Shown piece by piece: positions 25,486 to 29,461 of a stretch of DNA of 29,461 nt. A program made the position numbers and the translations under genes. Source of the DNA: a virus (taxonomy: Duplodnaviria > Heunggongvirae > Uroviricota > Caudoviricetes); the IMG/VR virus record IMGVR_UViG_2565956711_000012. One strand, 5' to 3'. Each line of letters begins with the position of its first letter. The stretch's first letter is position 1. The notes beneath the pieces were generated by a model, which was not told the origin of the DNA, made no database searches, and saw only the letters and a program-made list of their open reading frames with translations.

Positions 25486-26424
25486 TTATTCCTCGTTCAG
25501 ATTGCTGTGACCCAGTTCCAGCATCGCAGACTGGATGTGTGACGTACCGATGGTCTCACCCTTGCCCTGTGCATAAATCCCCGCCAGCGGAAGGATGTGA
25601 GACAGAGAACGGAGAGCGCCGGGACGACGGGCGATCATCTTCAACAGTTTCCGTTCCTCCTGTCCGCTGACCTGCCAGGCATCACAAAAACTGTCCACAT
25701 CTCCGGCTGATACGGTATTGATGACGTATTTTTTAGAGACGCGGGAGAACAGACGGGCGAAGTCCACACTGCGTTGTCCACCTGTCAGGCGGTCGTAGAC
25801 TTTATGGTTTCCGACCAGCGCCAGACCAACACCGCATTCCTCCTGGAGAATACGCAATTCTTCTACGGCATCCAGACTCAGCCAGTCAGCTTCATCCACA
25901 ACAATCAGACCACGCGTATCCGGCAGGCGCTGGCGTAACAGACGGGACAAAGCACCGCGACGATATGGCGCGTCAGCAATCCCCATTTTCAGTGCCAGTT
26001 CGTAAAGCGTTTCCAGTTCGTTGCTGCGGGACTTGCTGGCGGTGATATGCCAGACATTGTTGCCAGTCGCGGCATACTGTCTGATGGCTTTTGTTTTACC
26101 GACGCCGGGATTGCCGTATACCAGTACAATCGTTCCGGCCAGTTGCGCCCACGTCAGGGTGGCGAGAATTTTTTGTGAGGTCGGTGTTTCAACGAAATCC
26201 GGAGCCACGGGCAACGAGGTTTTTGCGGCGTTGTGGCTTTCCAGCCAGGTATTCAGGCTGGCGGCAACCGTATCGTTATCGCCCTTGTATTTCCCGTTAA
26301 GAAACTGAGAGACCGTAGCCGTTGAGGTGCCGGTTTCACGCGCCAGAGCTGCGCCTGAAATAGCTTTGCTGTCAATTAGTTCACGAATGGCACTACGCAC
26401 AACATCATGGTTAATTTGCGTCAT
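25486..26424 (-). CDS. B: transposition ATPase / target DNA activator MuB
   Basis: Walker A GNPGVGKT; N-terminal HTH region; start placed at the internal ATG (MTQINHDVV...) giving about 312 aa, since the ORF-track start at 26448 is a TTG. Confidence 0.85.
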   Translation of the reverse strand: MTQINHDVVRSAIRELIDSKAISGAALARETGTSTATVSQFLNGKYKGDNDTVAASLNTWLESHNAAKTSLPVAPDFVETPTSQKILATLTWAQLAGTIVLVYGNPGVGKTKAIRQYAATGNNVWHITASKSRSNELETLYELALKMGIADAPYRRGALSRLLRQRLPDTRGLIVVDEADWLSLDAVEELRILQEECGVGLALVGNHKVYDRLTGGQRSVDFARLFSRVSKKYVINTVSAGDVDSFCDAWQVSGQEERKLLKMIARRPGALRSLSHILPLAGIYAQGKGETIGTSHIQSAMLELGHSNLNEE

Positions 26425-26492
26425 GATTATTAATCCTGTATTTTTCAAATGGCCTGTACTTAATCAGGTGTTAAAACTGATTCACTTAATTC

Positions 26493-26520
26493 AAAGCGGC
26501 GCTCGCAACGTCGCTTTTTT
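26493..26520. other. stem-loop in the A-B intergenic region flanked by A/T runs
   Basis: AAAGCGGCG-ctcgcaa-CGTCGCTTT followed by TTTTTT on the plus strand; the hairpin is better (G-U wobble) on a plus-strand RNA, weaker with a short U-tract on the minus strand. Confidence 0.3.
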
Positions 26521-28505
26521 TATTTCTGCGACTGTTTCGCTTTATTAACGAACGTCTGAAAAATCACATCATTCTCGGTTTGCGTGTCCTGCATTTCCTC
26601 CACGCGTCTGACGGTATTACCCATATTGAATACGCGCTCAACAACATGACGTTCTGGCAACTCCGTATGTTCTGTCTTCGGTAGCAGGTCGTTAACTTCA
26701 ATCGCTGTCATGCGGTTTAGTGCCTTCGCTGCTTTCTTCGTGCTGCGCATCATTTCACGACGGGCGCGGTTGTGTTCCCGACCAGCCTCGGTATCACCAA
26801 ACGCCACTGCGGCGCGACACTCCGCCATACAGAGGAAGCGGCCATCAAGGTCGTAACAGGCCACTTCACTGTGAAGGTTGCGCGGATCAAAACGGACTGT
26901 AATTTTGCGTGAGCGATGGCTGACAAGTTGCTCACTCCAGTAGGTGTTCTTGCGGCCAAACAGGGTGCCGCCGCTTTCCATCGTGAATTCTCCGGTTGGT
27001 TTCACGCGAACCGACTCTGCCGGCAGCATGAACTGGCGGATTTGTTCTTCAGTTAAACGGGTGATCACAGCCTGGCTGTAGCTTTGTTCGAAAGCCTGAT
27101 CAAAGGACAATTCCCCCCGGCACATTTCCGTTTTACGCTGGGTCTTCCTGTTAAACATGGCGACACCTTCACTGATAATTTCCATAAAGGTCTCAACATC
27201 AACGGCGCGGCTGCCGTAGTTCTCCGGTTTTGAACTGACGTTTTCACCGGCAAATGCACCAGCCAGTGCCGGGTGTTTATCTATGTATTCACCCAGACCA
27301 CCCACACCAAAGGCACGTTCTACGGGTTTAGCCTGGCCCCAGCCTTTACCACCGATAACGCCAGTCCAGTGCAGCTTGATACCCAGCAGAGGGATGATCC
27401 CCATCGGGTCATCTTCACGGACTTTGAACCGATAGCGGTTAGGAACGCCACCAGACAACCATTTGTTCGCCGCTGCACGGGTGTTGTCTATCGTGATGTG
27501 TTGTGGTTTCCCGTAGGTTTTCAGTGTATCCATGAGTGACAGGCGGATACTGTCGCTGTTTTCTGATACATCAGCCCGCCAGCCGACAATTTTGCGGCTG
27601 TGGACGTCCTGCCAGAACCATGTTTTAGGGCGGATGATTTCACCGTTAAACCAGCGGACAAACACGTTGTGCTGATAACCGTCACCGTTAATCCATTCCA
27701 TCGCATGCAACTGCGCGACGGTGCGCTGTTGAGATGGATGCATCTGCGCTAGGGCGTTTTCACCTTCACGGGTGGCAACGACAATACGCGGATCAACTTC
27801 ACGTTCCAGCTTACGACGCAGGGTACGTTCAGCCGGTATGGTCCAGCCATGTGTTTCTGCGGCGATTTCCAGCCGTTCATAGCATTTGGAGAAAAACGGT
27901 GCTTCGTTGCGCAGGTAATCGCCCAGGAAGAATTGCCAGGCATCATCAGAAATTTCAGCCGAACGTCCCGTAACGCGTTTTTCACGAACCCGGCGATCGA
28001 GCAGTACCGGTCCCCAGAGATCAGGGCTGAAGTCCTTCACTTTGTAGTACAGATTGCGCAGCGTTCCTTCACTGATTTGAAGTTGCTTGGCAGCAAGGGT
28101 AATAGCTTTGCGGTTGCCAACACCTGATGCCATCAGCTCAGCCACCAGCGCGGCAGCTTTCGTGCGACGCTCTGCATGCAGTCGCTGTTCGCCTGTTGCT
28201 TTCTCCCAGGCTGACCAGAGACGCTGACGATCAAGGTCGTCAGCAGCCACACGTTCAGGCTCTTGCGGCAAAGTAATGAGTCCGGATGAGGTTTCAATCA
28301 AACCACGAGTTGCCAGCAATTCAGCCCGAACTTCTGGTGGCAATACTGATATGTGGTATTCAAATGCTTTGGTGCCGGCACGTTTGCGGCGTAGCTCACT
28401 GCGACCGCAAACCAGATCCTCAAGTTTTTTCCGTGCATTAGACTCAGCCTGTGGGAAACCACAGACGCCAACGCATTCTTTCACTGATACCCAAAACTCC
28501 ATCAT
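26520..28505 (-). CDS. A: DDE transposase MuA
   Basis: 661-aa ORF; N-terminal winged-helix domain paralogous to repressor c; long stretches (HAMEWINGDGYQHNVFVRWFNGEIIRPKTWFWQDV; GKGWGQAKPVERAFGVGGL) match MuA as I recall it; 4-bp overlap with ner. Confidence 0.9.
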   Translation of the reverse strand: MMEFWVSVKECVGVCGFPQAESNARKKLEDLVCGRSELRRKRAGTKAFEYHISVLPPEVRAELLATRGLIETSSGLITLPQEPERVAADDLDRQRLWSAWEKATGEQRLHAERRTKAAALVAELMASGVGNRKAITLAAKQLQISEGTLRNLYYKVKDFSPDLWGPVLLDRRVREKRVTGRSAEISDDAWQFFLGDYLRNEAPFFSKCYERLEIAAETHGWTIPAERTLRRKLEREVDPRIVVATREGENALAQMHPSQQRTVAQLHAMEWINGDGYQHNVFVRWFNGEIIRPKTWFWQDVHSRKIVGWRADVSENSDSIRLSLMDTLKTYGKPQHITIDNTRAAANKWLSGGVPNRYRFKVREDDPMGIIPLLGIKLHWTGVIGGKGWGQAKPVERAFGVGGLGEYIDKHPALAGAFAGENVSSKPENYGSRAVDVETFMEIISEGVAMFNRKTQRKTEMCRGELSFDQAFEQSYSQAVITRLTEEQIRQFMLPAESVRVKPTGEFTMESGGTLFGRKNTYWSEQLVSHRSRKITVRFDPRNLHSEVACYDLDGRFLCMAECRAAVAFGDTEAGREHNRARREMMRSTKKAAKALNRMTAIEVNDLLPKTEHTELPERHVVERVFNMGNTVRRVEEMQDTQTENDVIFQTFVNKAKQSQK

Positions 28506-28738
28506 GCAACCTCTTTAACAGTCAGATTCTGATAACGCGAAGGCCATATCTCTGATGGCTCCATGTTGAGAAAGTCAGCGATAATTTTCTCCCCTTTGGG
28601 CCAGTGGTGACGGAATACGTTACGTAATGTTGATTCCGCTAGCCCATGACAACGGGATAACTGACTGGTCGTCATTCCGCGTTTTCTAATCGCTGCTTTG
28701 ATGTCTTCAGGGTGCCAGTCTTGGCTTTTGGTCATCAT
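28502..28738 (-). CDS. ner: Ner DNA-binding early regulator
   Basis: 78-aa ORF; DWHPEDIKAAIRKRGMTTSQLSR...HWPKGEKIIADFLNMEPSEIWPSRY matches the Ner family; AAGGA 9 nt upstream of ATG. Confidence 0.8.
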   Translation of the reverse strand: MMTKSQDWHPEDIKAAIRKRGMTTSQLSRCHGLAESTLRNVFRHHWPKGEKIIADFLNMEPSEIWPSRYQNLTVKEVA

Positions 28739-28969
28739 TCTGCGATCCTTAAATATTTACTCGTTGCGGTGAACTAAACTGCTCACCTTTACGTGTAAAA
28801 ATATAGCACACAAAAAATCGAATTCAATCTTTTTGTCAGTCTTTTGTCGGTTTAATCAAATCTAAATAAATCGAATTTAAGTCTTTGATTTTTGTGAAAG
28901 CATGTTTTTACACCATAAAAAATCGAATCGAATTTTTTGTGAGCCAGAAAAAATCGGAAACAGGAGGTA
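28739..28969. promoter_or_regulatory. early operator / divergent promoter region between ner and c (Mu O1-O3 and enhancer equivalent)
   Basis: 231-bp AT-rich non-coding region with two repeat families: AAAAATCGAAT (about 28812, 28866, 28918 and a degenerate copy near 28950) and CTTTTTGT(C/G) (about 28829, 28840, 28888, 28933). Confidence 0.6.
28798..28829 (-). promoter_or_regulatory. candidate sigma-70 early promoter (Pe) driving ner-A-B
   Basis: On the minus strand: TTGAAT, 16-nt spacer, TATATT, placed about 60 nt upstream of the ner ATG. Confidence 0.4.
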
Positions 28970-29461
28970 ATGATGAATGAGCAAACTTGGTTTACGGCTC
29001 AAGAGTGTGCGGGGATGCCCGGATTCCCAAGTGGAGTATCCAATGTACGTAAGCAGTTAGAAAAACTCGCAGAAGGGTTGGACGGAGTGCGGCGGAAACG
29101 AGGAGGGACTAAAGCCACGGAATACCATATATCGATATTGCCTGCACGGACCCAAAATTATCTTGGGTATAGCAACAAAGGACAGCCATCTATGGGAGTT
29201 GAGGATTTCAAGACAAAAAGTGGCTTAGCAAATGATGAGAAGCAAGCACTCTGGATGATGATTTATCAGGGGATGACTGAAGCCCAACGTGAAGCTGTCA
29301 TGGAGATATTTATCACTGGTGGCTTAAAGATGCTTATGCCTGCGGTGCTTGAGTTATCTGATTCAAATCCGGTCCGACAGAAAGAGATTTTCGGACAATG
29401 TGATTCCATTGAAAAGGATAGCCCAGCGTCGAACGTAAGCACGCAAAACAAGGCTGGCTGA
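28970..29461 (+). CDS. c: repressor c (Mu Repc-like)
   Basis: 163-aa ORF divergent from ner; strong AGGAGG SD 5 nt upstream; N-terminal 60 aa are clearly paralogous to the MuA N-terminus (WxxxxECxGxPGFPxxxSNxRKxLExLxxGxxxxRRKRxGTKAxEYHISxLP). Confidence 0.7.
   Translation: MMNEQTWFTAQECAGMPGFPSGVSNVRKQLEKLAEGLDGVRRKRGGTKATEYHISILPARTQNYLGYSNKGQPSMGVEDFKTKSGLANDEKQALWMMIYQGMTEAQREAVMEIFITGGLKMLMPAVLELSDSNPVRQKEIFGQCDSIEKDSPASNVSTQNKAG

Follow-up and report, generated by a model that had tools for sequence, protein, structure and literature searches.

A putative Mu-type immunity region in which operator-like repeats follow the prophage repressor

The 231-bp, AT-rich stretch at positions 28739–28969, which is exactly the intergenic region between ner (minus strand) and c (plus strand), probably serves a Mu-like prophage as its switch for immunity and early control, with a layout like that of O1–IHF–O2 in Mu. 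In the sequence, two repeat clusters (28809–28851 and 28914–28959) are located on either side of an IHF core site, and the first lies over the predicted early promoter Pe. A previous sequence-only reading of this DNA had proposed repressor-type repeats and an IHF site here, for which matching repeats and an IHF core match are present, and had assigned the repeats to two families. These families appear to be mostly one unit of about 15 nt, (C/G)A(C/T)AAAAAATCGAAT, in both orientations, and the units are best read as operators of the c repressor.

Locus, genes and protein families

The whole stretch of DNA analysed (29,461 bp, hereafter the window) is identical to part of the chromosome of E. 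coli ECONIH5, in which narX is interrupted by a Mu-like prophage. According to the list of open reading frames, ner (28502–28738, minus strand; 78 aa) and the transposase gene A (26520–28505, minus strand) lie on one side of the intergenic region. A is followed by B (25486–26448, minus strand), and all these genes lie at the right end of the window. On the other side, c (28970–29461, plus strand) encodes a repressor of 163 aa. The left end of the prophage is located about 290 bp past the stop codon of c, outside the window past its right end, at the truncated narX, and finishes ...CA (L001 4062–4352); the control region is about 0.85–0.87 kb from this end. Related prophages are found in host genes that have nothing to do with one another, as would be expected if they insert by transposition.

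The Ner protein has an HTH_35 domain (PF13693, E = 1.3e-30), and c has an N-terminal Mu-type winged-helix domain (PF02316), with a Pfam score of 38 bits against a cut-off of 23.3. The A protein carries the full Mu transposase set of Pfam domains (PF02316, PF09039, PF02914 and PF09299). PF02316, the Mu N-terminal DNA-binding domain, is common to c and A and scores above the Pfam cut-off in each. The N-termini of c and A are identical at 31 of 61 residues (51%, E = 1e-22); in Mu, this comparison gives 42%, and in D108 it gives 55%. Among characterised phages, the nearest to this prophage are Mu, D108 and SfMu, to which A is 51.5% and c about 30% identical. As a DNA query, the 1-kb control region gave zero matches in the phage collection. 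The assignment as a Mu-type divergent c/ner control region, already made from the sequence alone, is borne out by the domains of c, A and Ner and by the identity of A to these three phages.

Both ner and c begin with ATGATGA (Met-Met), and A also has a Met-Met start. Owing to the starts of ner and c, the intergenic region is bounded on both sides by an exact inverted repeat of 8 nt, TCATCATT/AATGATGA (28732–28739 and 28969–28976). The C-terminal tail of c, ...STQNKAG (about 29400–29461), is kept across repressors with unrelated N-terminal domains and may be a common regulatory or degradation signal.

Repeat units, early promoter and IHF site

Two exact matches to the first pattern, AAAAATCGAAT, are found (28813 and 28918), together with one at 28866 that deviates by a single base, and all of its matches with up to one mismatch in the 29-kb window are inside the intergenic region. 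When up to two mismatches are allowed, the 231-bp region contains seven copies, located at 28813, 28866, 28918 and 28949 on the plus strand and at 28822–28832, 28883–28893 and 28926–28936 on the minus strand. The chance level was estimated from 2000 dinucleotide shuffles of this AT-rich region itself; the mean was 0.69 copies, and none of the shuffles reached seven. The second pattern, CTTTTTGT(C/G), is matched exactly once (28829). Three further copies, at 28888, 28933 and 28809 (the last on the minus strand), have a single mismatch each, and a deletion variant, CTTTTGTCG, lies at 28840. With up to one mismatch, there are four copies against 0.37 expected locally (0/2000 shuffles reach four). 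Across the whole window, the second pattern shows no enrichment (18 matches against 16.7 expected). Both patterns are thus real and locally over-represented, as the sequence-only reading had it, but they are not independent of each other.

Every CTTTTTGTS match with up to one mismatch overlaps the A-run end of a AAAAATCGAAT-like copy on the opposite strand. The copy at 28809–28817 (minus strand) is the CACAAAAAA of the unit at 28813, and those at 28829–28837, 28888–28896 and 28933–28941 are the distal ends of the three minus-strand copies. One unit is the simplest description, and the second family consists mostly of the ends of units on the other strand. The copies in minus orientation are degenerate, having either two mismatches or a 1-nt insertion, and their designation as the same unit is based partly on analogy with the related prophage L003 (discussed below).

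The units form two head-to-head pairs, at 28809–28837 and 28914–28941. The remaining ones are a weak plus-strand copy (28862–28876), a single plus-strand copy (28944–28959) and an extra degenerate minus-orientation copy (28838–28851). The starts of the plus-strand units are 53, 52 and 31 bp apart, corresponding to about 5, 5 and 3 helical turns. The minus-strand copy at 28883–28893 coincides with the IHF core and should therefore not be counted as a repressor site.

Pe was predicted on the minus strand (28800–28827), with the -35 element TTGAAT (28827–28822), the -10 element TATATT (28805–28800), a 16-nt spacer, a TG extension at -10 and a start at about 28793. It is the only sigma-70-like match in 28600–29100, and in all relatives scanned it scores highest at an unchanged position. 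For c, a promoter scan of the region and its relatives gave no convincing or conserved plus-strand promoter. The -35 element and spacer of Pe fall inside the first candidate operator cluster, the head-to-head pair at 28809–28837 (both strands), which is placed like O2 of Mu. Its plus unit is CACAAAAAATCGAAT, and its minus unit reads GACAAAAAGATTGAAT on the opposite strand and ends in the CTTTTTGTC of the sequence-only reading. A second tandem copy, GTCTTTTGTCGG (28838–28851, plus strand), follows the first by 11 bp upstream of the Pe -35 element, and it could be a degenerate unit in minus orientation or, alternatively, an A-tract upstream of the promoter. A 12-nt inverted repeat, GTGTAAAAATAT/ATGTTTTTACAC (28793–28804 and 28902–28913; 92% complementary, 97 nt apart), has one arm in the -10/start region of Pe and the other just before the c-proximal dyad.

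The middle unit, CTAAATAAATCGAAT (28862–28876, plus strand), has one mismatch to the core and is a candidate for a weak or auxiliary site. It is followed by the putative IHF core site AATCAAAGACTTA (28878–28890, minus strand), an exact match to WATCAANNNNTTR and the sole one in the 29,461-bp window. The c-proximal candidate operator, CATAAAAAATCGAATCGAATTTTTTGTG (28914–28941, both strands), resembles O1 of Mu and contains the near-palindrome AAAAAATCGAATCGAATTTTTT (28917–28938), in which A6 and T6 runs flank a tandem TCGAA repeat and 16 of 22 positions are self-complementary. This A6...T6 structure was also considered as a terminator and rejected, as there is no G+C stem and the terminator scan gave no match. 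The single unit, CCAGAAAAAATCGGAA (28944–28959, plus strand), contains an exact AAAAAATCG and lies just upstream of the ribosome-binding site of c (AGGAGG, 28962–28967, plus strand).

Comparison with related prophages

Relatives were gathered via c homologues, via Ner in viral contigs and via Ner in metagenomes. The metagenome scan with the Ner alignment gave 46 loci, six of which belong to this lineage and repeat types already seen. A scan of species-representative genomes with c gave only distant relatives in Vibrio and Mannheimia, which were left out. The alignment comprised 13 distinct intergenic regions, with c identity from 100% down to about 50%, and AAAAATCGAAT-like copies in the relatives were counted with up to two mismatches.

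Copy number follows the type of repressor. There are 4–7 copies in group 1 (c at least 76% identical) and 3–4 in group 2 (c 50–56% identical). None is found in L003, L029, Mu and D108, which have other Mu-type c proteins, and 0–1 copies are found in L002, L024 and L025, which have an XRE-type repressor. In L002, both Ner and the A N-terminus are identical to those of the window, and in L024 and L025 they are 90–95% identical (A N-terminus 90–91%). Group 2, on the other hand, retains the units with a Ner that is only 64–74% identical and an A N-terminus that is only 66–74% identical. This combination indicates that the units follow c, not Ner or A, and as their number varies with the repressor type, they are best interpreted as c operators. 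The sequence-only reading had tied its proposal to the presence of the repeats in closely related prophages, and AAAAATCGAAT was found to be conserved in those with a homologous c and absent in those with other repressors; on this point, the proposal withstands its own check.

In the 13 aligned regions, the conserved blocks are the ner leader, the position of a dyad downstream of Pe (described below), the Pe -10 region, CACAAAAAATCGAAT-TCAATCTTTTT, ATCTTTT, TTGATTT, AAAAAATCGAATCGAATTTTT and AGAAAAAATCG. The block at the Pe site, AAAAAATCGAATCGAATTTTTT and AGAAAAAATCG are kept (the last nearly invariant), and the sequence between them drifts. The core of the c-proximal dyad is almost invariant in these regions, down to a c identity of about 50%. 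The Pe cluster (28809–28837) is retained in group 1 and can still be recognised in group 2, and its place is taken by other motifs in L003, L029 and the XRE-type relatives. The middle unit survives only in the closest relatives and is degenerate or absent in the others, and ATCTTTT at 28838–28851 is conserved in nearly all relatives. In groups 1 and 2, L029 and Mu (TATCAACGCGTTA), an IHF core match, exact or with one mismatch, is found at a distance of 139–140 nt from the start codon of ner.

L003, a prophage of ECONIH4, and L029 have repeats of their own, CA.AAAAGTAC and ACAAAAGAAAG, at positions matching those of the window, namely at about 70 nt (plus strand), 100 nt (minus strand), 165–190 nt and 207 nt (plus strand) from ner. 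In both prophages, type-specific units are found at the position of the single unit at 28944–28959, about 207–211 nt from ner. In L003, a tandem pair upstream of the Pe -35 element is the reverse complement of its own c-proximal repeat, which supports a reading of CTTTTTGTC and CTTTTGTCG of the window as units in reverse orientation. The sister prophages, including the XRE types, are like the window in the ner leader, the dyad position, Pe and the positional plan of the repeats, but differ from it in a repeat tail that is particular to each repressor type. A common A-run core combined with a tail that is specific to the type agrees with repressors that form one family of related winged-helix proteins. 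The XRE-type sisters have no winged-helix repressor and carry palindromes such as GCGAA-N6-TTCGC.

In these XRE-type sisters, L002 (3024–3545), L024 and L025, the repressor N-terminus and the operators are swapped for those of the XRE type (HTH_3, found at the N-terminus of the L002 repressor), and the homologous C-terminal half of the repressor (...KEIF.Q...STQNKAG) is retained. Their DNA homology to the window breaks at about 28803–28845 and resumes near the 3′ end of c. In L003 (2875–3462), the repressor of the ECONIH4 prophage is annotated with 196 aa. Its start was probably placed too far upstream: other c proteins are homologous from MVDFSEW onwards, and operator-like repeats of the phage itself are present in the additional 5′ part.

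The comparison bears on whether the repeats could be mainly phased A/T-tracts, which would produce intrinsic curvature or be bound by nucleoid proteins or the alpha subunit of RNA polymerase (H-NS, Fis or a UP-like element), and not by a protein of the phage. The spacing of the A6/T6 runs at whole helical turns (53, 52 and 31 bp) agrees with such a role, as does the persistence of CTTTT tracts upstream of the Pe -35 element in all immunity types and in Mu. However, the most conserved part of the unit is its non-A/T tail, TCGAAT, and the tails change with the type of repressor, whereas the A-runs remain. We therefore consider this explanation unlikely for the repeats in general. It could apply to the tandem pair at 28829–28851 alone; this CTTTT pair is partly retained in the XRE-type relatives and is perhaps not a repressor site but an A-tract upstream of the promoter.

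Ner candidate, transposase and operator model

Between the predicted start of Pe and ner, a 7-N6-7 dyad, GGTGAAC-TAAACT-GCTCACC, is located at 28768–28787, about +6 to +25 of the predicted Pe transcript. A dyad with this arrangement is found at the equivalent position in 18 of 18 relatives, with the half-site pattern G-G/T-T/C-N-A-N-C. In Mu, the early leader contains the dyad ACTAAGT-GTAAAA-ACTTAGC at +4 to +25 of the annotated Pe start, and in D108 the dyad is CCGTGAGCTAC-N8-GTAGCTCACGG; we take these two to be the footprinted Ner sites. The spacer of the Mu dyad contains GTGTAAAAAC, which can be compared with the 12-nt inverted repeat described above. The dyad of the window has the geometry and position of that of Mu and a half-site resembling CCGTGAGCTAC of D108, GGTGA(A/G)C here being similar to GTGAGC. 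The D108 dyad differs in being 11-N8-11, with the GTGAGC centres 20 bp apart instead of 12 bp as here and in Mu. Among the relatives, Ner proteins with ..xH.. occur with GGTG half-sites and those with ..xN.. with GGT(T/C) or GTTT, although one or two independent events might be enough to account for this. The dyad at 28768–28787 is the best candidate for the Ner operator, and much better than the CTTTTTGT copies.

The same dyad would form a hairpin in the Pe transcript; the predicted fold of the leader RNA has -13.2 kcal/mol (z = -2.9). By our own tally in the 18 relatives, 7 of the 8 transition differences between the arms are G·U-compatible in the Pe-sense RNA. Because the mismatches are nearly all of this kind, selection may act on a 5′ RNA hairpin in the early transcript, besides or instead of a Ner site. 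A search of Rfam gave only a noise match (IS128; 17.7 bits, with the gathering score at 80).

The sequence-only reading had proposed two families for two proteins, with AAAAATCGAAT as the site of c and of the N-terminal domain of MuA, and CTTTTTGT(C/G) as that of Ner. Apart from the local over-representation of each pattern, the partial retention of the tandem pair at 28829–28848 in L002, where Ner is identical, agrees with this assignment. The rest of that set is not kept in L002, as the copies at 28888 and 28933 are missing there. The GT(C/G) ends are variable (GTC/ATC; GTG/ATG/ATA/GTT; GTG/GAG/ATG/GTA/ATA) among relatives in which Ner is unchanged or almost unchanged, and all four CTTTTTGTS matches with up to one mismatch overlap the A-run of a AAAAATCGAAT-like copy. 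Furthermore, the CTTTTTGT(C/G) copies show no Ner-type dyad and are placed upstream of Pe or near c, whereas the candidate Ner dyads of Mu and D108 are just downstream of Pe, with their counterpart here at 28768–28787. The assignment of CTTTTTGT(C/G) to Ner is not sustained, and a model with two families and two proteins now seems very improbable.

We propose the following model for the control region, in which the units are c operators. The sequence (C/G)A(C/T)AAAAAATCGAAT would be the binding site of the winged-helix c, consisting of an A-run core common to the family and a tail, ATCGAAT, specific to the type. Binding of c at 28809–28851, over the -35 element and spacer of Pe, would block transcription of ner, A and B, and the second cluster occupied by c (28914–28959) would adjoin the start of c. 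IHF bound at 28878–28890 could bend the DNA and, by looping, may allow the repressor at the two clusters to cooperate. Ner would most likely bind elsewhere, at the dyad just downstream of the Pe start (28768–28787). The N-terminal domain of the transposase probably recognises the c units as well, and the region, situated about 0.85 kb from the left end, would then also act as an enhancer of transposition.

Shared recognition by A is plausible because the N-termini of c and A are 51% identical, and use of the region as an enhancer by the transposase appears plausible on this basis. In Mu, the enhancer consists of two clusters of MuA sites around an IHF site and overlaps the operators (PMC3145075). 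It is hardly probable that the AAAAATCGAAT units are mainly such an enhancer for the N-terminal domain of the transposase, with c binding elsewhere: the PF02316 domain of A, its similarity to c and the overlap in Mu are in line with it, but the units are missing in prophages with an XRE-type repressor despite an A N-terminus that is identical (L002) or 90–91% identical (L024 and L025), they are kept with a homologous c where the A N-terminus is only 66–74% identical, and one cluster covers the Pe -35 element and spacer, where a repressor would act.

With c operators as the preferred reading, the XRE-type relatives also call the additional enhancer role into question, because their A N-terminus is identical or nearly so in the absence of units. 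In these relatives, either the enhancer is dispensable or altered, or A uses the conserved A-run core or a Pe-proximal site; AAAATTCGCAT is retained in L002 at the Pe-proximal position. If the XRE-type prophages transpose normally, enhancer function might be uncoupled from the immunity operators, which we consider possible but rather doubtful. In that case, the enhancer might reside in the A-run core and a Pe-proximal site or be dispensable, a departure from the paradigm of Mu, where a single stretch of DNA serves as both operator and enhancer. We also compared the unit with the transposase end-binding consensus YMyNwRAARYRCGAAAR (of Mu, quoted in the D108 record). A link between the two was rejected, with 3 mismatches in 11 by eye and no copies outside the operator region.

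The likeness to Mu extends over the whole arrangement. The divergent c and ner-A-B genes, the N-terminal winged-helix domain common to repressor and transposase, and the A-run/T-run repeats in both orientations, forming two clusters around an IHF core, are found in both. In each, the distance from the IHF core to the start codon of ner is 140 nt, Pe is covered by one of the clusters, a dyad is located just downstream of the Pe start, and the region is about 0.85–0.9 kb from the left end. In contrast, the proteins are distant, at the identities for A and c given above, and the unit tail is ATCGAAT here and of a GC type in Mu. The Pe -35 element is TTGAAT here and TTTACA in Mu. The intergenic region has 231 bp instead of the 169 bp of Mu, so that the whole c-proximal cluster is upstream of the start of c here. 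Unlike in Mu, the interval between Pe and ner in the window yielded no copy resembling O3. D108 resembles the window in the similarity of its c and A N-termini, which is about equal (55% in D108), but its operator repeats differ, with zero AAAAATCGAAT copies.

The region is a real, well-organised but ordinary Mu-type control region, and the sequence-only reading was right in its broad proposal of operators, an IHF site and a possible enhancer. The analysis provides a sequence-level map of the putative operators, IHF site, Ner candidate and Pe of an uncharacterised Mu-like immunity region, of a type found in prophages of E. coli, Citrobacter, Salmonella and Kluyvera. The map should be useful for annotation and for the design of binding experiments, and it leaves the understanding of Mu-type regulation unchanged. 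Within this family of prophages, the elements of the O1–IHF–O2 plan of Mu keep their positions, and the operator sequence differs from one type of repressor to the next.
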